Positions 5,249-63,265 of a stretch of DNA of 64,000 bases are shown here, one piece after another (positions within the stretch are counted from its first letter, which is position 1; every line of letters starts with the position of its first letter). Below the pieces are notes generated by a model. That model ran no database searches. It was given only the letters and a program-made list of their open reading frames with translations, and was not told the DNA's origin. Source of the DNA: an uncultured bacterium (GTDB taxonomy: Bacteria > Verrucomicrobiota > Kiritimatiellia > RFP12 > UBA3636); NCBI GenBank assembly GCA_902761575.1, contig CACWKU010000001.1:22435-86434 (forward strand). The letters are read 5' to 3'. The position numbers and the translations under genes were made by a program.

Positions 5249-8200
5249 CTAGCGCGTCAGGATCGCCCGGTAGAAATGGTGCTGGTCCGTGGCGGGCTGC
5301 CACGGGCCGGAAAGCGCGTCGGCGCCGAAGACCGTCACGGTCCCGTTGTAGGTCCCGGCGATGGCCGGAACCGTGCCCGGATCGATTCCCGCGAAGCGGA
5401 ACGCGGACTTCGCCTCGTCGAGGCCGGCCACGGCGCAGTTCAGAAGGTAGGCCGCCGAAAGCGCGTTGTCGGGGTTCCCGTCCGCGTCGAAGGACATCGC
5501 GTTCACGTCCGCGCCGCCGAACGGCACGCCGTTCGCGCGCGCCCACTTCGAGAGCCTGCGCAGCTCCGCCGTCGTGGTGCCGGCCTCCGCGAAGGCGCCG
5601 CCCGTGAGGCCGAGGTCCGCCGGCGAGGTGGCGTCCGTGATCGCCGTGTCGGGGTCCTCGGGCCAGTCCTGGAAGCCGCCGCCGCCGGCCTCGCCGAGGT
5701 CTCGGACCTGGAGGGCGGCGACGTAGCGCGCGGCGCCCGATCCGCCCATCTTGAACGTGACCACATGCGACGATGATTCCGCCGTGAACGAACCGTACAC
5801 CGTCGCGCCGGACGAGCCGTTCCCGTTCTGGATGCTGACGGAGGGCAGATCGCCGATCGTGATGTAGGCGTTTCCATACGAGTTGCGGGCCAGGATCTGC
5901 AGGAGATACGCATGGCCGGCCGTCAATCCCGAAAGCGTCAGATGGATCTCGCCCATGCCCGTATCCACGCCGAAGTCCCAGACCGTACCGAGGAGCGAGC
6001 TGCTCCCGGCGCTCACGTCCGCGCCGACGAAGGTCGGAGCAAAGGAAATGCTCGCCCCGGACAGGTTGGCGCCGGCCTGGAACGTCACGCCGCCCAGGGT
6101 CCGGTCCGTCGAGGCCCCGCGATAGGCGTAGAGAAGCGTGCCGTCCGTCCGGAGCATCGTTTCGTCCGACGCGCTCAGCGTCGCGACGGTCCAGCCCTCC
6201 ACGACGGAACCGCCGCCGCCCGACGTGTTGACGGCGAACGAGACGGACTTCGTGGCCGTCTTGCCCTTGTCGGTCGTGACCGTGACTGCGCAGGCGTAGG
6301 AGCCGTCGGCGAGGTTCTCGATGGAGAACGAGGCGGTGTCGTCGGTCTGGTTCGCGAGCGCCGCGACGGCGGTCCCGCCGTTCAGCGCGTAGGAGACGGA
6401 GTAGGACGACGCGGCCGCGCCCGCGTCGTCCGTTCCGAGCACGATGCCGGAGAGCGTGACCGTCGCGTTCGAGCCTGCAACATTGGCGGTCGCCGCGGCG
6501 ATCGACGGCGCGATGACCGGCGGCGGAGGCGTGCCGATCCGGAAGGAGACCGACTTCGCCGCCGAGGTCTTGCCCTTGTCGGTCGCGATCGTGACGACGC
6601 AAGTGTAGTCGCCGTCGGCGAGGTTCTCGATGGCGAACGACGCCGTCGCGCCGGTCTGGTTCTGCAGCGCCGTGACGGCGGTCCCGCCGTTCAGCGCGTA
6701 GGAGACGGAATAGGAAGTGGCGTCAGTCCCGGCATCGTCCGTCCCCATCACGATGCCGGAGAGAAAAAGCGACGCGGTGCTCCCGTCCGGAGTCGCGGTC
6801 ACGCTGCCGATCGACGGCTCGACGACCGTCGCCCCGCCGCCGCCGCCACCCCCGCCGCCGCCGTCGAGCTCGCGGACCTGGACGGCGTTGAACGGCATCT
6901 TGCCGCTACCGCCCTGATAGGTGATCGTCACGTCCTTCGTCGCGCCGACGGCCGTGAAGACGCCCGTGACGAGCGCGCCGTACTTCCCGCTCGCCTCGTT
7001 GTCGCCGTGGATGTGCACGGGGTCGCACCCGTTCGCGGAGACGGTCGTCGTGTTGTTCCAGTAGTTGTGCGCCAGGAACTGGACGAGGTAGATCTTCCCG
7101 CCTTCGAGATTCGAGAGCGTCAGCGTGACCGTGTGCGTGCCTGATCCGTCGCTGTCCCAGTACCAGCCGTTGCCGAGGGAGAGGCCGAGGTTGCCGCCGA
7201 CGCTTTCGTTCATGAAGTCGCCGGTGAAGCCGTCGATGTTGGGTGTGAAGGAGATCTTCGGAGGATTCTCCGAGGACTGGAGGTTCACGGACCGCTCGAA
7301 CGGGATTCCGTTGATGGTCCCGCCGTTGCAGACATAGCCGTAGACGAACGTGCCCTCCGTGCTGAATGCGGTGCCGCCCGCGTCCATGTATCCGGAGGTC
7401 CAGACATCGGAGACGGCGCTCGTGTTGACGTAGAAGACGACGGACTTCGTCTTCGCTCGCCCCTTGTCCGTCGTCATCGTGACCTCGCACGTGTGGTTGC
7501 CGTCCGCGAGGCCCTCGAGCGTGAACGAGCAGTCTTCCGACGTCTGGTCGGAGAGCGCCGTCACGGCCGCCGCGCCGTCGAGCTTGTAGGCGACGGAATA
7601 CTTCGTCGCGGGAACGGAGTTGGCGTCCGTGCCGAGGACGACGCCCGTGAGCGAGATCGTCGCGTTCGAACCGCTCGGCGCCGCGGCGAGCTCCGCGATG
7701 CGGGGATACTTCGGCCGGTTGTTCGTCGCGCGGTTCTGCGCGAACATCCAGACGAATCGGTGGTTCGGCGCGCCCGCCGTGACGTCGTCCTCCGTGGCGT
7801 AGCACGTCGTCCAGGCGTCGTGGCTGTTGTTCTCGAGCTTCTCGAAGATCACGTCCGATCCGAGCGCCCGGAGCGCCGTGACGATGCCCTCGGTCTGCTC
7901 GACGGGAATGGTCGGGTCTCCGCGGTTGTGCACGGCCAGGACCGGGACGTGCGCGATGTCGGCCGCGCAGGCGGGATCGCCGCCGCCGCAGCACGGCATC
8001 GCCGCGGCGAAGAAGTCGGGCCGGCGGCAGATCGCGTCCCAGGTCCCGTGCCCGCCCATCGAGAGGCCGGTGACGTAGATGCGGTCGGCGTCGACGTCCG
8101 CCATCGCGGCGTAGGCGTCGAGAAGGTCGAACACCGCCTGGAGCGCCGCGGACGGCTTGTCCTGGAACGTGCAGGTGGTCGAGTTCATGGAGAACTCCGC

Positions 8201-10795
8201 CCACTTGACGTCGTTCGGGCACTGGGGGACGAGAAGCTTGTAGCCGCTTGGGCCGCCCGCGCCGTCGAGGTAGCGCTGAATGTTCGACATCTCGTTGATC
8301 GTGAACGAATTGTCGACGCCGCACTGGCCGTATCCGTGAAGGAACACGACGACGGGAACCTTGCCGCCGTTCGGATCGGCCTTCGCCGCGACGCGGTAGG
8401 GGAGCTGAAGCTTGTTGGACGCGATGAAGGTCTTCTTGACGAATTCGCCGGTCAGGTCGTCGCCGCCGCCACCACCGCCGCCGCCGCCACCGCCGAGCTC
8501 GCGGAGCTGAATGGCCTTGACGAGGCATTTGCTGCCGGAGGTGGCGAACGTGACGGTCACGGTCTCCTGCGCGCCCGTCGCCTCGAACACGCGCGAAATG
8601 ACGGCGCCGCACTTGTAGTCGTTCTGCTTGGTGGCCTCGAACGGAACGAGATCGCCGGCGGAGAGCGTCGTCGAGGAATTGTTCCAGTGGTTGGCGGCGA
8701 GAATCTGGACCAGGTACTTCTTCCCGGCCGTGAGCCCCTGGAGGGTGAAGGCAAGGTCCAGCGAGGAGTCGCTCTTCTCCCACACCCAGCCGCCGTTGAA
8801 CACCGGGTTGTTCTCCGTCCAGCCCGCGCCGGCGTACGACGAGGGCGAGACCGTCGCCTGGTCCGAGCCCGGGAAGCCCGCGGAGAACGAGACGCCGTTG
8901 ACAGTGTGCCCGGTGAAGCCGCGCGCGAAGACCTGCGTGCCGTCGCTGCGGAACGCCGAGCCCGTCGCGTCCATCGGCGCGACCTTCCAGCCGACGGCGT
9001 CGGCCTGGGAATCGATCTGGAACTTGACGCGCTTCACGGCGGACATCACGACGCCGTCCGACGAAACCCAGACCGCGCAGGTGTGCCAGCCGTCGGCGAG
9101 GTCCGCGAGCTCGAACGAGGCCGAGGAGCCCGTCTCCGCCGCGGGAAGCGCCGTCTCGGCGCCCGCGTCGAGCTTGTAGGAGACCGCGAAGGACGCAGCG
9201 GCCGCGCCGCTCGCGTCCGTGCCCTTCGTCACGTTCGAAAGCGAGATCGTCGCCGACGTGCCGCTGACCTGCGCGGCGGCGGAGCCGATCGTCGGAAGCA
9301 CGACGGGCGAGGCGCCGGCCGTCGCCATCGCGCTGGCGATCGCGGGCGCGAGGATCTCCTCGTAGGCCTTCGTGGTCAGGTGCAGGAACTGGTCGGGATA
9401 GTCGCCGTTGCCCTGGAGGTACATCTCGCCGCGGTACGTCCCGTCGGCGTTCAGGAACTGGCTGCGGACGTCGACGAGGATCACGCGCTCTCCGTCCGCG
9501 AACGTCCGGATGATCTCGTTCGCCGCCTCGTTGTTGGCGTAGTGCGCGGCGCCCTTCGCGCCGTTCTGCGCGTTCGTGTAGCCGTAGGGGATGATCGGCA
9601 TCAGGAGGACCTTCGACTCGGGATGCTTCGCGAGGATGAGGTCGAGCACGGCGCGCACGCCCGCGGCGATGTCCGCGGGATCCTCGCTCGGATTCTTCCC
9701 GATCGTGTTGTTCGTGCCGATCAGCAGGTTGAAGAACTTCGTCGTGTAGCCGTCGATGCAGCCGCTCTCGAGGCGCCACAGCAGGTTCTCCACGAAGTCG
9801 CCGGTCCGGCCGAGGTTCAGGACGTTGGCGGCGAGTCCGTTCATGGACGAGGCGCTGTTCCCCTCCATCCACTTCTGAGTGAGGGAGTCGCCGAGGAGGA
9901 CGAGATCGAAGCTCCGGCCGTTTTCGCCGATGAGCTTCAGGTCGTCCTCGAACTTCCGCCAGAAGGCGTCCTGCAGATCGGCGTTGACCGCCGTCGGGAA
10001 CGTCGCGATGCGGTCGATCTCGGGACGCGCCGTCGCCACGAGGTCGGCGGGCATCGCGGAGCCGCCCGCCGCGGCGGCGACGTAGGGCGCGACCGCCTGG
10101 GCCCAGACCTCGTAGCCGGCCGCGTTCAGCGTGACGCGGTCGGCATTGAAGAGCGAGGTCTTCAGCGTGTGGTGGTCGTTCTCGAGGAAGAGGTCCGACA
10201 TGTCCACCCAGGCGCATCCCTTCTTCTGCGCGTACGCGCGAACGTCGATGTTCAGGCGGTCGTTGCGCGGACGCACGGGATCGGACTCGTCGAGCCCGCG
10301 CGGAAGCACCGCCTGCACGACGACCTTGGACGCGCCAACGCTTGCGACGAGGTCGTCGATGATTTCGCGCACGCCCAGGTACGTCTTCCCCTCCGGCTCC
10401 TCCTTCTCGGTGTAGATCGCGGCGTTGTTGCCGCCGACCATCAGGAAGACGACCTTGGGGCTGCCGAGCTCGCCGTTCCGGATGCGCCAGAGGACGTTCT
10501 CCGTGCAGTCGCCGGCGAAGCCGAGGTTGAACATTGTCCTGTCGCCGGTGAAGTAGGTCGCGAGCGCGCCCGCGCCCGTCGTCTCCCAGTCCTGCGTCAG
10601 CTCGTCGCCGAGGAAGACGATGTCCTTCCTGATGGAACTGTCGGCCACCGCCGCGACCTTCTCGGCGTGGCGCGCCGTCCACCAGGCGTCGAGCCGCGAG
10701 GCGGGGGTGTTCGCGCGGATGGACACCGCGGGTGCGTTCACAGCGGCCATCGCGAGGATCGCCGCGGACAGGAACGTGAAGGAGTGGGGTTTCAT
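5249..10795 (-). CDS. giant secreted multi-domain carbohydrate esterase: 2x SGNH hydrolase, one alpha/beta-hydrolase esterase (GLSMGGHGTWD), 5 Ig-like and 3 malectin-like domains, two Gly11 linkers, conserved ~130-aa C-terminal domain
   Basis: Real start MKPHSFTFLSAAILAMAAVNA (signal peptide) at 10793-10795, not the upstream TTG/ATG of the track ORF. Domain motifs are read directly from the translation. Confidence 0.8.
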   Translation of the reverse strand: MKPHSFTFLSAAILAMAAVNAPAVSIRANTPASRLDAWWTARHAEKVAAVADSSIRKDIVFLGDELTQDWETTGAGALATYFTGDRTMFNLGFAGDCTENVLWRIRNGELGSPKVVFLMVGGNNAAIYTEKEEPEGKTYLGVREIIDDLVASVGASKVVVQAVLPRGLDESDPVRPRNDRLNIDVRAYAQKKGCAWVDMSDLFLENDHHTLKTSLFNADRVTLNAAGYEVWAQAVAPYVAAAAGGSAMPADLVATARPEIDRIATFPTAVNADLQDAFWRKFEDDLKLIGENGRSFDLVLLGDSLTQKWMEGNSASSMNGLAANVLNLGRTGDFVENLLWRLESGCIDGYTTKFFNLLIGTNNTIGKNPSEDPADIAAGVRAVLDLILAKHPESKVLLMPIIPYGYTNAQNGAKGAAHYANNEAANEIIRTFADGERVILVDVRSQFLNADGTYRGEMYLQGNGDYPDQFLHLTTKAYEEILAPAIASAMATAGASPVVLPTIGSAAAQVSGTSATISLSNVTKGTDASGAAAASFAVSYKLDAGAETALPAAETGSSASFELADLADGWHTCAVWVSSDGVVMSAVKRVKFQIDSQADAVGWKVAPMDATGSAFRSDGTQVFARGFTGHTVNGVSFSAGFPGSDQATVSPSSYAGAGWTENNPVFNGGWVWEKSDSSLDLAFTLQGLTAGKKYLVQILAANHWNNSSTTLSAGDLVPFEATKQNDYKCGAVISRVFEATGAQETVTVTFATSGSKCLVKAIQLRELGGGGGGGGGGGDDLTGEFVKKTFIASNKLQLPYRVAAKADPNGGKVPVVVFLHGYGQCGVDNSFTINEMSNIQRYLDGAGGPSGYKLLVPQCPNDVKWAEFSMNSTTCTFQDKPSAALQAVFDLLDAYAAMADVDADRIYVTGLSMGGHGTWDAICRRPDFFAAAMPCCGGGDPACAADIAHVPVLAVHNRGDPTIPVEQTEGIVTALRALGSDVIFEKLENNSHDAWTTCYATEDDVTAGAPNHRFVWMFAQNRATNNRPKYPRIAELAAAPSGSNATISLTGVVLGTDANSVPATKYSVAYKLDGAAAVTALSDQTSEDCSFTLEGLADGNHTCEVTMTTDKGRAKTKSVVFYVNTSAVSDVWTSGYMDAGGTAFSTEGTFVYGYVCNGGTINGIPFERSVNLQSSENPPKISFTPNIDGFTGDFMNESVGGNLGLSLGNGWYWDSDGSGTHTVTLTLSNLEGGKIYLVQFLAHNYWNNTTTVSANGCDPVHIHGDNEASGKYGALVTGVFTAVGATKDVTITYQGGSGKMPFNAVQVRELDGGGGGGGGGGATVVEPSIGSVTATPDGSTASLFLSGIVMGTDDAGTDATSYSVSYALNGGTAVTALQNQTGATASFAIENLADGDYTCVVTIATDKGKTSAAKSVSFRIGTPPPPVIAPSIAAATANVAGSNATVTLSGIVLGTDDAGAAASSYSVSYALNGGTAVAALANQTDDTASFSIENLADGSYACAVTVTTDKGKTATKSVSFAVNTSGGGGSVVEGWTVATLSASDETMLRTDGTLLYAYRGASTDRTLGGVTFQAGANLSGASISFAPTFVGADVSAGSSSLLGTVWDFGVDTGMGEIHLTLSGLTAGHAYLLQILARNSYGNAYITIGDLPSVSIQNGNGSSGATVYGSFTAESSSHVVTFKMGGSGAARYVAALQVRDLGEAGGGGFQDWPEDPDTAITDATSPADLGLTGGAFAEAGTTTAELRRLSKWARANGVPFGGADVNAMSFDADGNPDNALSAAYLLNCAVAGLDEAKSAFRFAGIDPGTVPAIAGTYNGTVTVFGADALSGPWQPATDQHHFYRAILTR
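6831..6865 (-). repeat. GGC/GGT codon tract encoding a Gly11 linker in the giant esterase (second copy at 8458-8497)
   Basis: CCGCCGCCACCCCCGCCGCCGCC on the plus strand. Protein reads ...LRELGGGGGGGGGGGDDL... Confidence 0.8.
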
Positions 10796-14443: not shown

Positions 14444-14523
14444 GATTTTACCCAAGCTCCGGCCGCAAGGCAAACGCGAGCGGCGGCGGCGCTGTTGCCG
14501 TGCGCGGGGCGGTCTGCTAGCAT
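14444..14523 (+). promoter_or_regulatory. plus-strand variant: GATTTTACCCAAG element with a TAGCAT hexamer 9 nt before the ATG of the tandem esterase gene (spacing 71, not 51)
   Basis: Element at 14444-14456. TAGCAT at 14518-14523. ATG at 14533. Confidence 0.3.
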
Positions 14524-14532
14524 CCCCCCGCC

Positions 14533-16236
14533 ATGAGCACGATGAAACCCTTCGATCCCGCCGTCGCGGAGCGCCAGCCGGTCTGGCCCGCCGGAGAGAT
14601 GCCCGACCGCCAGCCCCACCAGATCGCCGCGATGACCGACGAGGCGGAAGCCCCCGGCTTCGACCCCGCCGCGCACACGGAGCCCTTCCTCGACTGGTAT
14701 CCGCCGCCCGCGAACCCCATCGGAGCCTGCGCGATCCTCGTCTCCGGCGGCGCCTACCAGAACTGCTGCGACGTGGGCCTGATCAAGGAGTGGCGCGAGC
14801 GCTTCGAGGCGCTCGGCTGCCAGTGCGTGAACTTCGTCTACCGCACGCCGTGGGCGCGCGGGATGGCGATCTACAAGACCGCGTGGGAGGACGCCCGCCG
14901 CGCCGTCCGCCTCGTGCGCTCGCAGGCCGCCGCGCGCGGCTTCGACCCGGAGCGCATCGTCACGGTCTCGATGTCCGCCGGCTCGCACCTCTCGCTGCTC
15001 CTCGCGACGGCGTCGCAGACGAAGGTCTACGAGCCCGTCGACGCGCTCGACGAGATTCCCTGCCACGTGAACGCCGCCGTCGCCTTCGCGCCGGCCGGGA
15101 TGCTCTCCGACGGCCCGATGTGCCCGAACGAGCGCGACGGCGACGGCCTCGACATCGAGCTCGACCCCGCCTTCGCGTTCGACGCGAAGACGCCGCCGGT
15201 CTTCCTCTCGCACGGCGGCGCCGACGCGTACTCGACGTTCAACTCGACGCGCATCTACCGCCGCCTGCGCGCGGCGGGCGTCCCGGCCGAGCTGCACATC
15301 CATCCCGACAAGCCGCACGGCATGTTCGGCCTCGAGCGCGGCGTCGAGTTCCTGCGCCAGATCGGCTTCCTCGGCCCGCTCGGGCCCGAGGTGCCGATCC
15401 TCGAGCGGTTCGCGTCCGACGACGCGCGCGACGGCGCCGCGGAGGCCGCGCCGATCTGGCCGGAGGGGCGCATGCCCCACCCGCAGGCGGACCAGTGCGA
15501 GCCGATCCTCGAGTGGCACCTCCCGAAGAAGCGCACGACCGACGCCATCCAGATCGTCTGGAGCGGCGGCGCCTACCTCGGCAACGACCCGGACGGCTTC
15601 GAGGTCGCGCCCGCGCGGCGCTACCTGAACGGGAAGGGCATGGCCGTCGTCACGGTCCGCTACCGCACGCCGCGCCCCTCCCCTCCCCTCGCCAAGCACG
15701 TCGCGGCGTGGCAGGACGTCCAGCGCGCGGTCCGGCTCGTCCGCGCCGGCGCCGCGGCGCGCGGCCTCGACCCGGACCGCATCGGCGTGATGGGCAGCTC
15801 CGCCGGCGGGCACCTGGCGCTGCTGGCCGCGACCGGCTCGCGCCACCGCACCTACCTTCCGGTCGACGAGACCGACGCCCTACCCTGCACCGTGCAGTGG
15901 TGCGTTGCGATCTACCCGGCCTACACGATCGAGGGCACCTACGACAACGGGACACCCGACGGCTCCAACGACCCGGCGCTGCGCCTCGCCCCGGAGCTGC
16001 CGTTCGACCCCGACACGCCGCCGATCCTCTTCGTGCACGGCGACGCGGACGAACACCCCGCCACGGCATCCGTCGCGACGTGGGAGCAGCTGCGCCGCAT
16101 GGGCGTCCAGGGCGCGGTGCACACGCTCGCCAGGCGCGGCCACTGCTTCTACTTCGCCGCCGCCCCCGGCACCGGCTCCTACACCTTCCTCGACCGGGTC
16201 TGGGAGTTCCTGACGGACAAAGGCTTCAACAAGTAG
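14533..16236 (+). CDS. tandem-duplicated alpha/beta-hydrolase (esterase/lipase) protein, two GxSxG domains, no signal peptide
   Basis: Track ORF. Nucleophile elbows SMSAGSH and GSSAGGH. Each half ends with an HGxADxxV/HP motif. Confidence 0.65.
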   Translation: MSTMKPFDPAVAERQPVWPAGEMPDRQPHQIAAMTDEAEAPGFDPAAHTEPFLDWYPPPANPIGACAILVSGGAYQNCCDVGLIKEWRERFEALGCQCVNFVYRTPWARGMAIYKTAWEDARRAVRLVRSQAAARGFDPERIVTVSMSAGSHLSLLLATASQTKVYEPVDALDEIPCHVNAAVAFAPAGMLSDGPMCPNERDGDGLDIELDPAFAFDAKTPPVFLSHGGADAYSTFNSTRIYRRLRAAGVPAELHIHPDKPHGMFGLERGVEFLRQIGFLGPLGPEVPILERFASDDARDGAAEAAPIWPEGRMPHPQADQCEPILEWHLPKKRTTDAIQIVWSGGAYLGNDPDGFEVAPARRYLNGKGMAVVTVRYRTPRPSPPLAKHVAAWQDVQRAVRLVRAGAAARGLDPDRIGVMGSSAGGHLALLAATGSRHRTYLPVDETDALPCTVQWCVAIYPAYTIEGTYDNGTPDGSNDPALRLAPELPFDPDTPPILFVHGDADEHPATASVATWEQLRRMGVQGAVHTLARRGHCFYFAAAPGTGSYTFLDRVWEFLTDKGFNK

Positions 16237-48841: not shown

Positions 48842-48943
48842 GCAAGAAATTGTACCATCCGCTCCGTGCCCTCCCCGTGCCCCTCGCTCGCCCCGCGCCG
48901 GGTCGGCGGTGGTCGTAGCTCGCATCGCTCGGTCCCGAAAACC

Positions 48944-49025
48944 AACAAACTCCCGAGTGTTTATTCAACAAACTCCCGAACGATTCTTCAACAAACTCCC
49001 GGACGAAATTTCAACAAACTCCCGA
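48944..49025 (+). repeat. four direct repeats of CAACAAACTCCCGA (period 22-23 bp) immediately upstream of the ATPase promoter
   Basis: Copies at 48944, 48967, 48989 and 49012. The third copy ends in G. Confidence 0.85.
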
Positions 49026-49030
49026 ACAAC

Positions 49031-49059
49031 TTGACATTTCCTTAGATTTCTCATAGAAT
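49031..49059 (+). promoter_or_regulatory. near-consensus sigma70 promoter TTGACA-N17-TAGAAT for the COG1373 ATPase gene; no Shine-Dalgarno site
   Basis: TTGACA at 49031-49036, 17-nt spacer, TAGAAT at 49054-49059, ATG at 49068. Confidence 0.6.
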
Positions 49060-49067
49060 TCGCCACC

Positions 49068-53231: not shown

Positions 53232-54626
53232 TCAGGCGAAGTGCGAGAGCGGCGCCTTGCCGATGGCGCGGACGTGGAACCCGAGCTCGAAGAGCTCGCG
53301 GCGGTCGAGGCAGTTGCGGCCGTCGAAGACGAAGGCCGGCTTGCGCATCCTCGCGAAGATCCGCGCCCAGTCGAGCTCCGGGAACTGGCGCCAGTCCGTG
53401 AGGACCGCGACGGCGTCCGCGCCCTCGACGGCCGTGTAGGGATCCTCCTCGAACGAGACGAGGTCGCCGTGGCGCGCGAGCTCCTTCCGCGCGTTCGGGA
53501 GCGCGTAGGGGTCGCACACGACGAGCTGCGCGCGCTCCTCGGCGAGCAGGTCCGCGACGACCTTCGCGGGCGTCTCGCGCGTGTCGGACGTGTCCGCCTT
53601 GAACGCGTAGCCGAGGATCGCGATGCGCTTGCCCGCGACGGTGTTGAACATCGCGTGGACCATCTCGGCGACGAAGCGCGTCTCCTGGTGCTCGTTCATC
53701 TCGACGACGGAGTTCCAGTAGGCCGCGGCCTCCGTCAGGCCCCGCTGCTCGCAGAGGTAGACGAGGTTGAGGATGTCCTTCTTGAAGCACGAGCCGCCGA
53801 AGCCCACGCCGGCGCGGAGGAACTTCGGCCCGATGCGCGAGTCGCGGCCGATGGCGCGCGCGACCTCGTCGACGTCGGCGCCCGTCTTCTCGCACAGCTC
53901 CGTGAGCGCGTTCACGCTCGAGATGCGCTGGGCGAGGAAGGCGTTGGCGGCGAGCTTCGAGAGCTCGGAGGACCAGACGTTGGTGGTGAGGATGCGGTCG
54001 CGCGGCACCCACTCGGCGTAGATGTCGACGACCGCCTCGCGCGCGGCGGCGCCGGTCGGGGTCTCGTCGGAGCCGACGAGCACGCGGTCGGGCTTCTCGA
54101 GGTCGGCGATCGCGGTGCCCTCGGCGAGGAACTCGGGGTTGGAGAGCACCTCGAAGCGGTGCGCGCCGCCGGACTCGAGCACGCGCTTCATCGCCGTCGC
54201 GGTGCGGACGGGGAGCGTGCTCTTCTCGACCACGATCAGGTCGTGCGTCGCGCACTCGCGGATCTCGTGCGCGGTCTTCTCCCAGTACTGCAGGTCGGCC
54301 GCGCGCCCGGCGCCCTGGCCGAAGGTCTTGGTGGGCGTGTTGACCGCGACGAACACGACGTCCGCCTCCGCGATCGCGGCGGGGATGTCGGTCGAGAAGA
54401 AGAGGTTGCGCCCGAGCGTCTCCGCGACGACCTCCTTGAGGCCGGGCTCGTAGAACGGGAGCGCGTCGGACTGCCACGCGGCGATGCGCTTCGCGTCGAT
54501 GTCGACGACCGTGACCTTGCGGTCCGGGCACTTTTTGGCGATCATCGCCATCGTGGGGCCGCCGACGTAGCCGGCGCCGATGCACAGGATGTTCGTGAGC
54601 TTTTTCGGGGTCTTGACGGTCTTCAT
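53232..54626 (-). CDS. ugd: UDP-glucose 6-dehydrogenase, long eukaryote-type form
   Basis: Start MKTVKTPKKLTNILCIGAGYVGG. Motifs GGSCFKKD, NPEFLAEGTAI. Long identical stretches to animal UGDH as I recall it. Confidence 0.85.
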   Translation of the reverse strand: MKTVKTPKKLTNILCIGAGYVGGPTMAMIAKKCPDRKVTVVDIDAKRIAAWQSDALPFYEPGLKEVVAETLGRNLFFSTDIPAAIAEADVVFVAVNTPTKTFGQGAGRAADLQYWEKTAHEIRECATHDLIVVEKSTLPVRTATAMKRVLESGGAHRFEVLSNPEFLAEGTAIADLEKPDRVLVGSDETPTGAAAREAVVDIYAEWVPRDRILTTNVWSSELSKLAANAFLAQRISSVNALTELCEKTGADVDEVARAIGRDSRIGPKFLRAGVGFGGSCFKKDILNLVYLCEQRGLTEAAAYWNSVVEMNEHQETRFVAEMVHAMFNTVAGKRIAILGYAFKADTSDTRETPAKVVADLLAEERAQLVVCDPYALPNARKELARHGDLVSFEEDPYTAVEGADAVAVLTDWRQFPELDWARIFARMRKPAFVFDGRNCLDRRELFELGFHVRAIGKAPLSHFA

Positions 54627-54706: not shown

Positions 54707-55648
54707 TCACCGCTCCACGCGCATCGGGTTCTCGAGGAAGTCCCTGTAGGCGAGCTTGAGGCCGTCCTCGAGGGAGGTCTTCGGCCTCCAGCCGAGGGCG
54801 ATGGAGCGGGAGAGGTCGAGCAGCTTGCGCGGCGTGCCGTTCGGGCGGGTGCGGTCCCAGCGGATCTCGCCCTCGTAGCCGACGGTGCGCGCGACGAGCT
54901 CGGAGAGCGCCTTGATCGTGATCTCGCGCCCGGAGCCGGCGTTGATCGGGTCGTCGCCGTGGTAGCGCTCCATCACGAGGAGGCAGAGGTCGGCCAGGTC
55001 GTCCACGTAGAGGAACTCGCGAAGCGGCGAGCCGTCGCCCCAGCAGGTCACGAAGGGCGCCTTCGCCTCCTTCGCCTCGTGGAAGCGGCGGATCAGCGCG
55101 GGCAGGACGTGGCTGTGCTCCGGGTGGTAGTTGTCGTTCGGGCCGTAGAGGTTCGTCGGCATCACGGAGACGTAGTCCGCGCCGTGCTGGCGGTTGAGGT
55201 AGGCGCAGTACTTGAGGCCCGCGATCTTCGCGAGCGCGTAGCCCTCGTTCGTCGGCTCGAGCGCGCTCGTGAGCAGGCAGGACTCCGGCATCGGCTGCGG
55301 CGCGAACTTCGGGTAGATGCACGACGAACCGAGGAAGAGGAGCTTCCGGCAGCCGTTCCTCCACGCGGCGTGGATCGCGTTCATCTCCAGCATCGCGTTG
55401 TCGTAGAGGAAGTCCGCCGGCGCGGCGGCGTTCGCCGCGATGCCGCCGACCTTCGACGCGGCGAGGAAGACGTAGTCCGGCCTCTCCTCCGCGAAGAAGG
55501 CGTCCGTGGCGCGCTGGTCGCGCAGGTCGAGCTCCGCGTGCGAGCGGACGACGATGTTCTCGAAGCCGCGGCGCTTCAGCGCGCGGATGATGGCGGAGCC
55601 GACCATCCCGCGATGGCCTGCGACGTAGATCTTGGCGTTTGGTTCCAT
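54707..55648 (-). CDS. fcl: GDP-L-fucose synthase (GDP-4-keto-6-deoxymannose 3,5-epimerase/4-reductase)
   Basis: Track ORF. N-terminus [15 protein letters not shown]. Motifs YxxxK and LYGPNDNY. Confidence 0.8.
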
Positions 55649-55687
55649 GGTCTGGATGGTCCGATGGTCCGGATGGTCCGATGGTCA
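55649..55687 (-). repeat. four tandem GACCATC(G/CN) units forming the fcl 5-prime leader
   Basis: Sense strand reads GACCATCG GACCATCCG GACCATCG GACCATCCA GACC-ATG. Confidence 0.9.
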
Positions 55688-55804
55688 GAAGTGGCGCGCG
55701 GCATCATGAATTCGACATGGCGCGTTGCGATGGGCGCGGAGTCTAGCAGAGGGGTCGGCGGGAACGGAAGGGACGGAGTTGACCGTTTCTAGCACGATTT
55801 TGAC

Positions 55805-55833
55805 TTGCTTTCCGGGCGGGCCGATGATAGCAT
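55805..55833 (+). promoter_or_regulatory. candidate araC promoter TTGCTT-N17-TAGCAT with a very short leader
   Basis: Hexamers at 55805-55810 and 55828-55833. ATG at 55840. Confidence 0.35.
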
Positions 55834-55839
55834 GGACCC

Positions 55840-56691
55840 ATGAAACGTGCGCAGAACGAGGAGTCCGCCCCCCGGCGGCGGCTCTGCACACCGGACGGTT
55901 TTGCACGGTCGTCTCTCCTCCACGTGCAGGAGATCGGCGAGCTTGCTCCGTCACGTCCGATGACGAGCCGGCGCGCGGGATTCCCGTCGCTTCTCTTCCT
56001 GCTCGCCGAGTGGGGCGAAGGCGTGGTCCGCGAGGGCGCCGAGGAGCGTCCGCTGCGCGCCGGGGAGTGCGCGCTGCTGGACTGCCGCCGCGGGTGCGGA
56101 CACGCGACGGGCGAGCCGCCGTGGCGGCTCAAGTGGATCCACTTCGACGGACCCGGCGCGGCGGCGTTCGGCGAGAGATGGCGTGAGCGCGCCGGCGGAC
56201 CGGTCCTGCGCGCGACGTCGCCGGAGCGCTACCGGCGCGCGTGGGAGGAGGTCTGGGCCGCGGTCTCGTCGGAGGACGACCCGATCCGCGACCTCCGCGC
56301 GAACGAGGGGCTCGCCTCGCTCTGCACGCTGCTGATGCAGGACGCTCTCGGGACGGAGCCCGACCGGCGCGCGGAGCGCCTCGCGGCGGTGCGCTCCTGG
56401 ATCGATGCGCACTGCGCGGAGGAGGTCGCGCTCGACCGTCTCGCGGCGGTGGCGCACCTCAACAAGTACACGCTCGTGCGCGAGTTCCGCGCGCGGTACG
56501 GCGTGCCGCCGATGCGCGCCCTGGCGCAGGCTCGCGTCTCGAGGGCCAAGCGCCTGCTCCGCTTCACGGACGACACCGTCGAGACGATCGGCGCGGCGGT
56601 CGGAGTCCCCGACCCGAACTACTTCGCGCGCCTCTTCCGCCGCGTCGAGGGCCTCTCGCCGCGCGCCTTCCGCGAACGCTGGCGGGAATGA
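55840..56691 (+). CDS. AraC-family transcriptional regulator (cupin sensor + HTH)
   Basis: Track ORF. C-terminal HTH ...YTLVREFRARYGVPPMRALAQARVSRAKRLL. Confidence 0.75.
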   Translation: MKRAQNEESAPRRRLCTPDGFARSSLLHVQEIGELAPSRPMTSRRAGFPSLLFLLAEWGEGVVREGAEERPLRAGECALLDCRRGCGHATGEPPWRLKWIHFDGPGAAAFGERWRERAGGPVLRATSPERYRRAWEEVWAAVSSEDDPIRDLRANEGLASLCTLLMQDALGTEPDRRAERLAAVRSWIDAHCAEEVALDRLAAVAHLNKYTLVREFRARYGVPPMRALAQARVSRAKRLLRFTDDTVETIGAAVGVPDPNYFARLFRRVEGLSPRAFRERWRE

Positions 56692-59790: not shown

Positions 59791-61496
59791 GGTGTGGTGT
59801 ACCGGGAACTTGATGAGCGGGAAGCGGAAACATCCGGCGTGGCGCCGTCGGCGCGGAGGCGCAGGGCGAGCCCGCCCTCCGGGGGCTCCTCGACGATCGC
59901 CTCGACGCGACCGAGCCCGGCCGCGGCGTGGAAGGCGAGGACGGCCGCGTCGAGAATCCCGGAGACCTCGGGGTCGAGGCGCAGCCCGAACTTCGCCGCA
60001 AAGCCCGCGAGCGCGTTCGCCGTGCGGACCTGCGCCGCGAGGCGCGGCATGTCCGCGCGCAGCGCGAGGAGCGCGGCGGGGTGCGCACCCCGCCACGCCG
60101 CCACGACCTGGCCGACGGTCTCGCCGCTCCCCTCCCCCGCCCCGCCGGTCAGCGCGTTCCACGCGCCCCGGCCGAGGCCGAGGTCGAGCCGACCCGCGGT
60201 AGCGTCCTCGGAGACGAACGCGCAGTCCGCCTCCGGCGTCTGGCCGAGCAGCTCGAACTTCTTCGCGCGGACGAGCCGCGTGGCGGGGTCCGGCGCCGAG
60301 TCGCGAAGGCGCAGGTCCACGTCCGCCTTGAGCGCCTCGAACCACGGCGGCCACCACTGCGCGAGCGGCGCCGCGGGATCGGCGGGAAGCGAAAGCGCGA
60401 GCGACGGCACCTCGAGGATCGCCAGGTGCGTCGCGTTCGGACGGTCCGCCGCCCACGCGACCGCCGTGCCTTCGCCGAAGGGCGGCAGGCCCGAGTCGGC
60501 CGGGATCCACCCCTTCGCGACCGGCGCGGCGACGAGGAGGAACGCCGCGTCCGCCGGCGCACGCGCCGCGGCGCCCGCGAGGGGCGCGGCGGCGCCGAGC
60601 GACGGGTCGGGGAGGCTGGACCGTATCCCGGAGCCGACCATGGCGTCGAGCTCGATGCCCGGGCGCCTGAACGACGCGAGGTCGAGCGTGAAGGGATTGC
60701 AGTCGAACGCGTAGGGACCGAGGTCGTAGGGCTGCACCCAGATGCGGTGGCGCTTGCGGATCTCGCGCCAGGGCTCCGGTTCGCGGTCGGCCTGGACCGG
60801 GCCGCCTGCCTTGAAGCATCCGGCGAGACGCTGCCAGGAGTCCGTCTTCCCCGCGACGCGCGCCGCGAGCTCGGCTACGCGGTCCGGGTCCTGCGCGAGG
60901 ACGGCGACGAGGACGCCGTCGACGATATCGAGGCCGAGGACGATGCCATTGTCGCGCAGCTCGCGGGCGTGCGGGAACTCCATGTAGCGCGTGCCCTTCG
61001 CGGTGGTGCGCAGCGGCCCGAGGCCGGGCACCCACCTGATGCGCCAGAGCAGCTCCAGCGCGCGCGCCTTCCAGCCGACGTAGCTCGCGCCCGCGAGGTA
61101 GCCGCCGAGCCCGGCGCATTCGCCCTCCTCCGGGACGACGCCGACGACCGAGTTCTCGCCCGTGAGCCAGAAGAGCGTCCAGAAGACGCCGGCGTTGTCG
61201 TCGATCGCGTCCTCCGGATCGCCGCCGAGCGCGCGCAGCGCGTACTGGAACGACGGGTTGCGCAGGAGTGCGCGGTCCTCCATCGCGAGGTTGCGCACGT
61301 AGGCCGCGGCGGCGGTCCGCTCCGGCAGCGCATAGAAGAGCTCCGCCCGGTCCATCGGATACCAGAAGAACCAGAGCGCGACGGCGGCGATCGCGCAGCG
61401 ACGCAGCGCCTTGCGGCGCCGCCGCGCCCAGGCGCGCGGCCCCGTGGCGGGGTCCGCCCCCGCGGCGAGAAATTCGTCGTCGTCCATGTCGCCCAT
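59787..61496 (-). CDS. hypothetical single-pass membrane protein
   Basis: Track ORF. One hydrophobic helix AIAAVALWFFWYP. ATGA overlap with the GH3 start. Carries an in-frame copy of the 24-nt palindrome (WRGAHPA). Confidence 0.45.
   Translation of the reverse strand: MGDMDDDEFLAAGADPATGPRAWARRRRKALRRCAIAAVALWFFWYPMDRAELFYALPERTAAAAYVRNLAMEDRALLRNPSFQYALRALGGDPEDAIDDNAGVFWTLFWLTGENSVVGVVPEEGECAGLGGYLAGASYVGWKARALELLWRIRWVPGLGPLRTTAKGTRYMEFPHARELRDNGIVLGLDIVDGVLVAVLAQDPDRVAELAARVAGKTDSWQRLAGCFKAGGPVQADREPEPWREIRKRHRIWVQPYDLGPYAFDCNPFTLDLASFRRPGIELDAMVGSGIRSSLPDPSLGAAAPLAGAAARAPADAAFLLVAAPVAKGWIPADSGLPPFGEGTAVAWAADRPNATHLAILEVPSLALSLPADPAAPLAQWWPPWFEALKADVDLRLRDSAPDPATRLVRAKKFELLGQTPEADCAFVSEDATAGRLDLGLGRGAWNALTGGAGEGSGETVGQVVAAWRGAHPAALLALRADMPRLAAQVRTANALAGFAAKFGLRLDPEVSGILDAAVLAFHAAAGLGRVEAIVEEPPEGGLALRLRADGATPDVSASRSSSSRYTTP
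60073..60096. repeat. near-perfect copy (GCGGCGGGGTGCGCACCCCGCCAC) of the 24-nt palindrome inside the CDS 59787..61496 (encodes AWRGAHPA)
   Basis: One mismatch at position 2. The same WRGAHPA peptide as at 16839-16862. Confidence 0.8.
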
Positions 61497-61528
61497 TCTA
61501 GCAGAACGGGCGCCGGACTTCCACCCGC

Positions 61529-61587: not shown

Positions 61588-62205
61588 ATGCGCCTCGTCC
61601 TCGCCTCCCGCAACTCCAACAAGCTCGTCGAGCTCCGCGCCCTCTGCGGCCTGCCGGCGGACTTCCTCGTCTCCGCCGCCGAATGCCCCGGCGCGCCCGA
61701 CCCCGAGGAGGATGCCGACACGTTCGTCGGCAACGCGCTCATCAAGGCGCGCGCGCTGCGCGACTTCTCGGGCGAGTGGGCGCTCGCCGACGACTCCGGG
61801 CTCGAGGTCGACGCCCTCGGCGGCGCGCCCGGCGTCCATTCCGCGCGCTACGCCGGCGTCCACGGCGAGGACGGCGCGAACAACGCGCTCCTCCTGCGCA
61901 ACCTCGACGCGCTCGGCCCGAAGGCCCCGCGCACATGCCACTTCTCCTGCGCGCTCGCCCTCGTCGCGCCCGACGGCCGCGAGTTCGTCGCGCTCGGCCA
62001 GTGCCCCGGCACGCTCCTGCGCGAGGGCCGCGGCACCAACGGCTTCGGCTACGACCCCCTCTTCCTCCCCGACGGCCGGGACAAGACCTTCGCCGAGCTT
62101 CCGCGCGAGGTGAAGTGCACCTTCTCCCACCGCGCCCGCGCCGCCGAACGCATGCGCCCCCTCCTCCGCTCCCTCTTCCCGACCCTCCCCCCTCCCCAAC
62201 CATAG
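61588..62205 (+). CDS. rdgB: non-canonical purine NTP pyrophosphatase (Ham1/RdgB family)
   Basis: Track ORF. N-terminus MRLVLASRNSNKLVEL. Motif GFGYDPLF. Confidence 0.7.
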   Translation: MRLVLASRNSNKLVELRALCGLPADFLVSAAECPGAPDPEEDADTFVGNALIKARALRDFSGEWALADDSGLEVDALGGAPGVHSARYAGVHGEDGANNALLLRNLDALGPKAPRTCHFSCALALVAPDGREFVALGQCPGTLLREGRGTNGFGYDPLFLPDGRDKTFAELPREVKCTFSHRARAAERMRPLLRSLFPTLPPPQP

Positions 62206-62242
62206 ACCATCGGACCATCCCGACCATCGGACCATCCCGACC
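62205..62242 (+). repeat. four tandem GACCATC(G/CN) units forming the galE 5-prime leader (the entire rdgB-galE spacer)
   Basis: Reads GACCATCG GACCATCCC GACCATCG GACCATCCC GACC-ATG. Near-identical to the fcl leader. Confidence 0.9.
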
Positions 62243-63265
62243 ATGCACATCCTCGTCACCGGCGGCGCCGGCTACATCGGCAGCCACACCTGCGTCGCGG
62301 CCTATGCCGCGGGCCATACGATCACGATCCTCGACAACCTGTCGAACAGCTCGCCCGAGTCCCTGAACCGCGTCGAGAAGATCAGCGGGAGGCGCCCGCG
62401 CCTCGTCGTGGGCGACATCGGCGACCGCTCCGTCGTCCGCTCCGTCCTCGACTCGGAGAAGTTCGACGCCGTCATCCACTTCGCCGGCTACAAGGCCGTC
62501 GGCGAGTCCGTCGCGAAGCCCTGGGAGTACTACCAGAACAACGTCGCGGGGACGCTCGTCCTCCTGGACGAGCTCCGGAGGCACGGGGTGCGCAACTTCA
62601 TCTTCTCCTCCTCGGCGACGGTCTACGGCAACCCCGACCCGAAGGACCTCCCGCTGAAGGAGACCGCGCCCCTTTCCGCCCTCAACCCCTACGGCGCGAC
62701 GAAGCTCTGGCTCGAGGAGATCATGCGCGCGATGGCCGCCGCCGATCCGGCGTGGCACTTCCTGCTGCTGCGCTACTTCAATCCCGTCGGCGCGCACGAG
62801 AGCGGCCTCATGGGCGAGGATCCCGCCGGCATCCCGAACAACCTGATGCCCTACATCACGCAGGTGGCGGTCGGCCGCCTGAAGGAGCTCACGATCTTCG
62901 GGAACGACTACCCGACGCCCGACGGCACCGGCGTCCGCGACTACATCCACGTGTGCGACCTGGCGGAGGGGCACGTCGCCGCGCTCGCAAAGGTCGCGGA
63001 CCTCCCCGGCTGCACCGCGATCAACCTCGGCTCCGGCTCGGGCGTATCCGTCGCGCAGCTCGTCGCCTCGTTCGAGAAGGCGATCGGCCGCCCGCTCCCG
63101 CACCGGTTCGGCCCGCGCCGCCCCGGCGACGCCGCGGCCTGCTACGCGGACGCCTCGAAGGCGCTGCAGCTCCTCGGCTGGAAGACGAAGCGCAACTCCG
63201 ACGACATGTGCCGCGACGCCTGGAACTGGCAGTCGAAGAACCCCAACGGCTACAAGAATGCGTAG
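62243..63265 (+). CDS. galE: UDP-glucose 4-epimerase
   Basis: Track ORF. Motifs MHILVTGGAGYIGSH and YGATK. Confidence 0.85.
   Translation: MHILVTGGAGYIGSHTCVAAYAAGHTITILDNLSNSSPESLNRVEKISGRRPRLVVGDIGDRSVVRSVLDSEKFDAVIHFAGYKAVGESVAKPWEYYQNNVAGTLVLLDELRRHGVRNFIFSSSATVYGNPDPKDLPLKETAPLSALNPYGATKLWLEEIMRAMAAADPAWHFLLLRYFNPVGAHESGLMGEDPAGIPNNLMPYITQVAVGRLKELTIFGNDYPTPDGTGVRDYIHVCDLAEGHVAALAKVADLPGCTAINLGSGSGVSVAQLVASFEKAIGRPLPHRFGPRRPGDAAACYADASKALQLLGWKTKRNSDDMCRDAWNWQSKNPNGYKNA

Follow-up and report, generated by a model that had tools for sequence, protein, structure and literature searches.

Start-codon-fused GACCATC repeat arrays as candidate Shine-Dalgarno-independent initiation regions in high-GC rumen Kiritimatiellae

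Three nucleotide-sugar genes of an uncultured rumen bacterium (Kiritimatiellia, UBA3636), fcl, ugd and galE, are each preceded by a tandem array of the heptamer GACCATC, the last unit of which runs directly into the start codon. We analysed these leaders in a 64,000-nt stretch of DNA (contig CACWKU010000001.1, positions 22,435 to 86,434; hereafter the window), part of an 82-kb scaffold from a cattle-rumen metagenome (STEW19-1) with a genome GC content of 69%. Arrays of the same build lead many other genes in related contigs, and we give a probability of about one half to the reading that they are regions of the mRNA at which translation would initiate without a Shine-Dalgarno (SD) site, built and resized by replication slippage.

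Structure of the arrays

The arrays in the window and the genes that they lead, with products assigned by Pfam, were as follows.

55686->55649, minus strand: fcl leader array, GACCATCG GACCATCCG GACCATCG GACCATCCA GACC and then ATG, with four full GACCATC units and spacers G, CG, G and CA
55648-55646, minus strand: fcl start codon, formed by the ATG that ends the last unit (GACC-ATG); the Epimerase domain starts at residue 7
54707..55648, minus strand: fcl, GDP-L-fucose synthase-like protein of the Epimerase family, 313 aa
~54708->54627, minus strand: ugd leader array, about 10 units of mostly 9-nt period, including two degenerate GACCCTC units
54609..54626, minus strand: ugd start and array-like codons ATG AAG ACC GTC AAG ACC, encoding an N-terminal MKTVKTP extension
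53232..54626, minus strand: ugd, UDP-glucose 6-dehydrogenase, 464 aa
61588..62205, plus strand: Ham1/RdgB-like gene, upstream of galE on the same strand
62205-62242, plus strand: galE leader array, GACCATCG GACCATCCC GACCATCG GACCATCCC GACC and then ATG at 62243, with four units plus GACC
62243..63265, plus strand: galE, UDP-glucose 4-epimerase, 340 aa

All three arrays (38-80 nt, 4-10 units) lay on the sense strand of their own gene, and in each the final unit was completed by the start codon, turning GACCATC into GACCATG. The fcl and galE leaders matched at 36 of 38 positions, with both differences in spacer bases, and were flanked on the 5' side by cacttct and ccaTA, respectively. An initial sequence-only reading had described the three leaders as one type of element, with fcl and galE differing at two of 38 nt and each leader oriented with its gene and tied to its start codon, and the array sequences bear this out. 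The ugd array took up all 80 nt that separate the fcl stop (54707-54709) from the ugd ATG (54626), and the galE array the entire 37-nt Ham1-galE gap, its first G being the last base of the Ham1 stop TAG; the last ~8 codons of Ham1 were themselves degenerate array-like sequence, part of a segment that varies between strains. The word GACCATC occurred 34 times in the window against 8.4 +/- 2.9 expected, a count that 0 of 100 shuffles reached, and Tandem Repeats Finder recovered all three arrays, with a 17-nt higher-order period (95-100% match) in fcl and galE. These were the only three arrays in the ~82 kb of source genome. Their sequences recurred in independent assemblies from several cattle-rumen samples, the fcl array being identical in five independent contigs.

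Pfam domains of the three products began at residues 3-12, which indicates that the ATGs at the array ends are the true starts. For the same reason, and because no in-frame upstream start was present, we rejected the idea that the repeats at fcl, ugd and galE are translated. The MKTVKTP extension of ugd was missing from most orthologues, which begin MKKLTN.

Across 43 leaders from several species (258 units), core base frequencies were G 0.89, A 0.93, C 0.99, C 0.98, A 0.94, T 0.96 and C 0.96, figures inflated by the collection of units with up to two mismatches. The spacer took 22 forms, 9-nt steps dominated (205, with 47 of 8 nt), and arrays held 3-15 units with a median of 6.

Initiation signals and predicted folding

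None of the three array genes had a canonical SD site, that is, complementarity to the 16S rRNA 3' tail 4-13 nt before the start. Their pairing with the anti-SD sequence reached only -0.4 to -3.2 kcal/mol; about 13 of 33 other genes called on the scaffold reached -5.5 to -9.5 kcal/mol, and about eight had a TAGAAT/TAGCAT-type -10 box a few nt before the ATG, a sign that their leaders may be short or absent. In cultured Kiritimatiellae the anti-SD is canonical, and ~63% of genes are able to pair with it (PMC10783764). An array and an SD site can coexist, as shown by an acyl-carrier-protein-like (acpP-like) gene downstream of a FabG-like SDR gene, whose composite leader (L141 2170-2260) comprises (GAATGCT)2, four GACCATY units, a CA-rich CAAAACAACAACAACCCCCAACCCAAACC and an AAGGA SD site 8 nt before the ATG. 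Pairing of the arrays with 16S rRNA as a whole was rejected: with E. coli rrsH as a stand-in for the host's 16S, arrays paired no better than shuffled arrays, and the sole match to the tail (AUCCGACC with GGUUGGAU) lies mostly inside helix 45 and would require its bases. Near-cognate initiation at AUC was likewise set aside, as many arrays contain 8-nt steps that take the AUCs out of the reading frame, and no consistent rule emerged.

The leaders were poor in G (15%, vs 25% in other leaders), and array start regions were the least structured by prediction. Mean folding energy from -40 to +30 was -7.3 kcal/mol for array leaders (n=42) vs -14.1 kcal/mol for other starts (n=29; Mann-Whitney p = 3e-6), and random 70-mers averaged -25.6 kcal/mol. 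Folding z-scores for the three leaders and an alternative galE allele (see below) were 0.23, 0.04, +2.31 and +1.93, so that a structured RNA, which would fold beyond its shuffles, was ruled out (z-scores 0.0 to +2.3); Rfam gave no match across the whole window, which also contained no tRNA genes. An unstructured single-stranded tract of at least ~16-18 nt 5' of the start, as expected of a ribosome standby site, is thus predicted in these leaders.

Array-led genes in related genomes

We scanned 185,579 species genomes without an ATG anchor and obtained matches in many phyla. Among the matches listed, most were His/Asp-coding repeats or 8-mer non-coding arrays, and of the 10 arrays located in bins of high-GC rumen Kiritimatiellae and "Verrucomicrobia", 7 abutted an ATG on the sense strand and two were translated in frame as DHP repeats (L071 and L017). 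A metagenome scan anchored on GACCATG returned at least ~45 high-GC contigs in which an array was followed by the ATG of a genuine N-terminus. An anchor-free rescan of 284 kb of related loci added arrays that had not been seeds, likewise at starts (L125 fcl, L129 8989, L153 803 and two in L222), and nearly all arrays among 45 related loci ended in GACC-ATG. The sequence-only reading had named copies unlinked to start codons as what would refute it; in these scans the arrays were associated with starts, and this refutation fails.

In related high-GC Kiritimatiellae contigs, same-register arrays preceded more than 35 functionally unrelated genes. Pfam, run on 20 array-led proteins, identified domains that began at residues 1-5, and several array-led proteins had signal-peptide-like N-termini.

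Carbohydrate-active and envelope: GH2, GH3, GH10, GH130, polysaccharide deacetylase, RmlA, NAD-dependent epimerase, LpxA
Central metabolism: Cys/Met PLP enzyme (metY-like), Iso_dh (isocitrate/isopropylmalate dehydrogenase), enolase-superfamily enzyme, cytidylate kinase (cmk), IspF, IlvD
Other: sodium:solute symporter, phosphodiesterase, DUF1846, Gfo/Idh/MocA oxidoreductase, WG-repeat protein

Further copies of fcl and ugd were array-led in relatives, and the array was kept at orthologous fcl and ugd across diverged lineages with a changed copy number. GACCATC/GACCACC arrays also preceded two genes of a predicted viral contig (IMG/VR IMGVR_UViG_3300031994_004278, GC 0.70), listed here with their loci.

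L301 98-643, minus strand, and L304 146-442, minus strand: a phage-type C5 DNA methylase and a small ORF beside a DnaB-like helicase

Such arrays may help to tie a phage or prophage to a Kiritimatiellae host. Given the unrelated genes that it precedes in relatives, the leader is a general feature of this high-GC rumen Kiritimatiellae lineage and no mark of glycan genes.

The GACCATC sequence was not exclusively a leader, since arrays also occurred in frame within genes and as inverted pairs. One in-frame array (L071 3514-3591, minus strand) inserted 26 aa (DHPDHP...TIQ) between domains of a GH2 enzyme, and another (L017 727-778, minus strand) encoded a DHP/EHP linker after an N-terminal membrane helix. 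In the inverted pairs, antisense (GGATGGTCN)n arrays stood directly beside sense (GACCATCN)n arrays and would form long hairpins; terminator-like elements and sequestration of a leader are both possibilities. They were seen in Kiritimatiellae and in Gemmatimonadales and Anaerolineae genome bins (L006, L011, L014, L045 and L096 being examples from other phyla), and included the following.

L207 98-224: inverted array pair
L227 1416-1570: inverted array pair
L055 320-390: inverted array pair
L059 2522-2700: inverted array pair

Resizing and replacement of arrays

Copy number differed between near-identical sequences by whole units. L098 and L203 matched at 633 of 633 positions and differed by a single 17-nt (8+9) indel within the array, L056 and L125 (99.0% identity) differed by a 36-nt indel inside the array, and indels of 9 nt and 36 nt separated L167 from L171 and L207 from L227, respectively. 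The fcl and ugd arrays of the window were invariant across 4-5 independent rumen assemblies.

At galE the array had been exchanged altogether. Three loci from conspecific strains (L240, L242 and L244) encoded an identical GalE protein within flanks 99-100% identical to the window, and in them the Ham1-galE gap held an unrelated (TCGTCAC) array of 6-7 copies, up to tgaaATG, in place of the GACCATC array.

L240/L242/L244 ~9947-9997: alternative Ham1-galE allele, matching window 62150-62242, with a Ham1 3 aa shorter

The TCGTCAC family was also present at L222 1277-1305. At ugd, an orthologue with 88% identity carried about ten ACCTTCG/ACTTTCG copies up to its ATG, another overlapped its upstream gene and carried an AAGGA SD site, and others had A-rich or C/T-rich G-poor leaders. 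As other G-poor leaders thus occupy the same position, we suggest that selection favours a landing region that is poor in G and unstructured, and does not act on the heptamer GACCAUC as such.

The same contigs held many further 7-9 nt repeat families, such as AATGCTG, TTCAACCA and TCGTCTCA, often in series between a stop and the next start, as in the layout stop-(AATGCTG)5-(TTCAACCA)4-(GACCATC)n-ATG (series at L056 1679-1837, L125 2724-2934, L118 6117-6194, L204 8728-8802 and L236 2589-2678); the AATGCTG/CAGCATT family recurred in many contigs and in both orientations. Runs of N lay exactly at a known or expected repeat leader (L240 ~2331-2447, the ugd leader, and L239 15713-15812, upstream of valS), and because short-read scaffolding breaks at arrays, their number in genome bins is probably underestimated. 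We propose that the arrays arise, grow and vary by slipped-strand mispairing during replication, which would explain the origin, growth and variation of the leaders.

Promoter context

In the window, fcl has a divergent promoter region, with an AraC-family gene (Pfam) adjoining it on the opposite strand.

55740..55748, minus strand: extended -10-like box TGCTAGACT, ~50 nt upstream of the fcl array; L098 and L203 have the same box before the array

We infer that this box is the fcl promoter, in which case the fcl array, lying downstream of it, would be in the 5' untranslated region (UTR). Both ugd and galE follow a gene on the same strand, and a consensus scan of the fcl-ugd and Ham1-galE gaps turned up nothing resembling a promoter or a terminator.

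TAGAAT, TAGCAT or TAGACT -10-like boxes, often preceded by TGn, lay 0-25 nt before the ATG of many genes (window 55826-55842, 61484-61505 and 14520-14545; gene starts in L239, L245 and L248). From sequence, this suggests that leaderless or short-leader mRNAs are widespread in the source organism, and in some genes the called start is probably wrong, since the called ATG falls within the -10 box. Elsewhere in the window, four direct repeats with a 23-nt unit (CAACAAACTCCCGA + 9 nt; 48943-49027) stood directly upstream of a near-consensus promoter (TTGACA-17-TAGAAT, 49025-49059), followed 8 nt later by the ATG (49068) of an AAA_14/DUF4143 gene; the region 48943-49067 looks like iterated transcription-factor sites on a leaderless or very-short-leader mRNA. 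A 309-nt tandem duplication (1.8 copies, 80% match; 6258-6828) within a very large minus-strand ORF, which encodes a GDSL-lipase/Ig-like-domain protein, probably reflects repeated protein domains.

A translation-initiation region resized by slippage

We postulate that a sense-strand run of 4-10 GACCAUC units, separated by a free 1-2 nt spacer and closed by a GACC-AUG unit, would provide a G-poor, single-stranded landing or standby platform on which 30S subunits could bind despite the 69% GC surroundings. Binding might occur via ribosomal protein S1, via another single-strand RNA-binding protein, or by ribosomes arriving from the upstream cistron, and the array would play the same role after a promoter (fcl) as within operons (ugd and galE). 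Slipped-strand mispairing would make and resize arrays and even swap them for other G-poor heptamer families, and resizing may give a heritable tuning of expression. A role in the mRNA at translation initiation is favoured by the strict sense orientation, the fusion to the start codon, the operon-internal use, the lack of another ribosome-binding signal, the retention at fcl and ugd and the use of arrays by a mobile element. The suggestion of the sequence-only reading that the leaders mark a post-transcriptional or transcriptional regulon holds in part: an mRNA-level role is the most plausible, and the specificity for nucleotide-sugar or capsule genes is not upheld.

Several points weigh against the proposal of an initiation region. 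The function is deduced from position and composition alone, and a sequence low in G is almost bound to be predicted as weakly structured. The galE leader, taken with the first 30 nt of its gene, is predicted to fold at -17.3 kcal/mol and so would not be unusually open, and C-rich ribosome binding sites selected in vitro performed poorly in living E. coli (PMC3310771). Core conservation of 89-99% per position vs 22 spacer forms would be unexpected if composition alone mattered, although that figure is inflated by the way units were collected; it is puzzling that the core is so uniform across genes and species although other families can replace it. In-frame arrays within coding sequence (L071 and L017) and inverted pairs (L055, L059 and L207/L227) show that the sequence is not exclusively a leader, and all three arrays of the scaffold stand on nucleotide-sugar genes, which is also a weak residual point for the sequence-only reading.

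Alternative explanations

The uniform core might instead reflect a sequence-specific factor that reads GACCAUC units in the RNA ((GACCAUCC)n) and governs a broad post-transcriptional regulon, an explanation that we regard as unlikely while giving it real weight. The reader could be an oligomeric or multi-domain RNA-binding protein that works like CsrA, TRAP or the cold-shock proteins, or else a small RNA with GAUGGUC repeats. Because the start codon lies within the last site, binding would either prevent or permit initiation. The conserved core and the freedom of the spacers in sequence and length (8 or 9 nt period) across 43 leaders from several species fit such a reader, as does the overlap of the last unit with the AUG; flexible spacing suits recognition of single-stranded RNA more than helical phasing on DNA, inverted arrays able to sequester a leader exist (L207/L227), and the same proposal was made for TAACTGA repeats (MacGregor, PMC4679880). 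A requirement for a specific motif is, however, hard to reconcile with the swap of the galE leader for an unrelated heptamer within flanks 99-100% identical, or with ugd orthologues that carry a third heptamer family or no repeat. The array-led genes have no functional theme, core conservation is partly a matter of ascertainment, units having been accepted with up to two mismatches, and no candidate factor was identified, though none was sought.

A more elaborate scheme, which we think rather improbable, would make GACCAUC arrays and their sister heptamers a lineage-specific ribosome-recruiting code, in which a dedicated factor or ribosome feature binds the units and picks the one changed from AUC to AUG as the start. 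Slippage would then supply a heritable, adjustable translation rate, and one C-to-G change inside an in-frame (9-nt) array would be enough to create a new start, as MKTVKTP in ugd suggests. The dominance of 9-nt steps may be explained if they serve to keep upstream ATC codons in frame and so allow a C-to-G change to shift the start, at which the ugd extension hints.

It is a little less probable again that the arrays are a neutral or selfish expansion of simple sequence, with slippage-prone heptamers spreading wherever they are tolerated and leaders happening to tolerate them. Whole-unit indels are the sole difference between some otherwise identical sequences (the 17-nt indel between L098 and L203, 633/633), many other 7-9 nt families fill the intergenic DNA of the same contigs, arrays lie in frame within genes (L071 GH2 and L017) and spill into coding ends and starts, and assemblies break at them (N-gaps), all as expected of such expansion. 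It would not account for the strictly sense orientation in a fixed register with the ATG, the retention at orthologous fcl and ugd across diverged lineages, or the use of arrays by a mobile-element gene. With no other ribosome binding signal before array-led genes, initiation there must at least use the array as its region.

Contingency loci, in which repeat number switches or grades expression stochastically and heritably like the (ATCTTTC)n 5' UTR tract of Haemophilus influenzae hmw1A, would explain the copy-number polymorphism between near-identical strains and the two galE leader alleles in one population; the three genes here make surface-glycan precursors, and hmw offers a precedent (PMC12721329). 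We nevertheless consider this very unlikely. Repeat number does vary, but the array-led genes are not confined to surface or host-interaction functions (ilvD, ispF, cmk, the Iso_dh gene and that of the Cys/Met PLP enzyme), and because many of them, including lpxA, are housekeeping genes, switching makes little sense. Moreover, the fcl and ugd arrays were unchanged in the 4-5 independent rumen assemblies, changes of 8-9 nt in an untranslated leader cannot shift a reading frame, and folding made no hmw-like G-rich partner arm evident for fcl or ugd.

Action at the level of DNA, whether as an iterated operator (for example, of the divergent AraC-family protein) or as a two-tetrad G-quadruplex of the G-rich antisense strand GGATGGTC, is highly improbable. 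An AraC-family gene is indeed encoded beside fcl on the other strand, the antisense strand of the arrays is the G-rich one and lies at most 50 bp from the ORF, as with GGGNATC repeats (PMC4692102), and the four 23-bp direct repeats before a promoter at 48943-49027 show that this genome uses iterated DNA sites. Two of the three arrays, however, are inside operons, in gaps of 37 and 80 nt that lack a promoter, the 8-9 bp spacing is off helical phase, and the fixed fusion to the ATG has no rationale on DNA; GGATGGTC has GG doublets only, and array sizes (median 6, range 3-15) show no preference for the four units of a GGGNATC-type quadruplex.

Equally remote is a regulon dedicated to nucleotide-sugar, capsule or exopolysaccharide precursors, as the sequence-only reading had it: all three arrays in ~82 kb precede nucleotide-sugar genes, and relatives have arrays before rmlA, another epimerase gene, lpxA and additional copies of fcl and ugd, but most array-led genes there are unrelated to glycan synthesis (housekeeping, carbohydrate-active enzyme, transporter, secreted and phage genes, with Pfam on the 20 proteins ruling out a glycan-only set), conspecific strains with identical GalE dispense with the galE array for an unrelated heptamer, and ugd orthologues use other leaders without it.

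Significance and comparison with known systems

SD-independent initiation is still an open question, especially in high-GC genomes where mRNA structure is a problem, and this uncultured rumen lineage appears to solve the SD-less start with a recognisable, fast-evolving repeat leader. If confirmed, the arrays would be a simple marker for true start codons in Kiritimatiellae metagenome-assembled genomes and a natural setting in which protein output might be tuned through repeat number. In practical terms, they break short-read assemblies (N-gaps) and can mislead gene callers.

Among multi-site leaders, CsrA binds GGA sites and TRAP binds (G/U)AG repeats. The arrays resemble these in having several short motifs with variable spacers, the last of which overlaps the initiation region, and differ in that other repeats can stand in for the motif at a given locus; a cognate protein is not known here, none having been sought. 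Heptameric GGGNATC repeats of Xanthomonas and Nostoc, for which a quadruplex has been proposed (PMC4692102), are likewise abundant and intergenic, place their G-rich strand antisense no more than 50 bp upstream of ORFs, vary in copy number and have neighbouring genes without a functional theme. In contrast, the arrays have no GGG tracts and could form at best a weak two-tetrad quadruplex, show no four-unit preference and are fused to start codons.

The (ATCTTTC)n tract of H. influenzae hmw1A (PMC12721329, PMC8262952) is transcribed, and expression falls with its length (PMC12721329). It shares with the arrays a heptamer tract between promoter and start codon, whole-unit polymorphism between strains and, in the window, an association with surface glycans. 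Unlike it, the arrays abut the ATG, take the place of the ribosome binding site and are also operon-internal; many array-led genes in relatives are housekeeping, and a hairpin partner is not evident.

The leader of tobacco mosaic virus (TMV omega) is a translational enhancer that works without an SD site. Other non-SD elements are CA-repeat standby 5' tails (PMC5934652), which reach their full effect at 16-18 nt, ACA enhancers (PMC3879156) and C-rich ribosome binding sites selected by ribosome display (PMC3310771). The arrays are similarly G-poor, C/A-rich, predicted to be single-stranded, directly 5' of the start and longer than 16-18 nt. Those elements were defined experimentally in E. coli, mostly beside an SD site, whereas the arrays are conserved natural heptamer repeats, known from their sequence and lacking an SD site.

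The literature search found no account specific to GACCATC or to Kiritimatiellae repeats. The closest described phenomenon is the TAACTGA direct heptamer repeat (MacGregor 2015, PMC4679880), known from marine Beggiatoaceae and from some Cyanobacteria and Bacteroidetes. There, 169 sets, mostly forward, end ~1 nt before start codons; SD sites are rare in these leaders, downstream genes have no functional theme, some copies overlap ORF ends or lie within ORFs, and S1, cold-shock and CsrA proteins were proposed as readers (PMC4679880). Both systems thus consist of tandem direct 7-nt repeats with one G per unit, in forward orientation at start codons, with rare SD sites, no gene theme and some copies in ORFs. 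The unit here is GACCATC, so the arrays are of the same kind as TAACTGA but not of the same sequence family, and they further differ in their free 1-2 nt spacer (period 8-9, not 7), their 3-15 units vs 2-6, the inclusion of the start codon in the last unit where TAACTGA sets end ~1 nt before it, their high-GC rumen host of the PVC group, and the strain-level copy-number change and replacement by other heptamers documented here. If confirmed, the GACCATC arrays would be a second, independent case beside TAACTGA and would turn a curiosity into a class.

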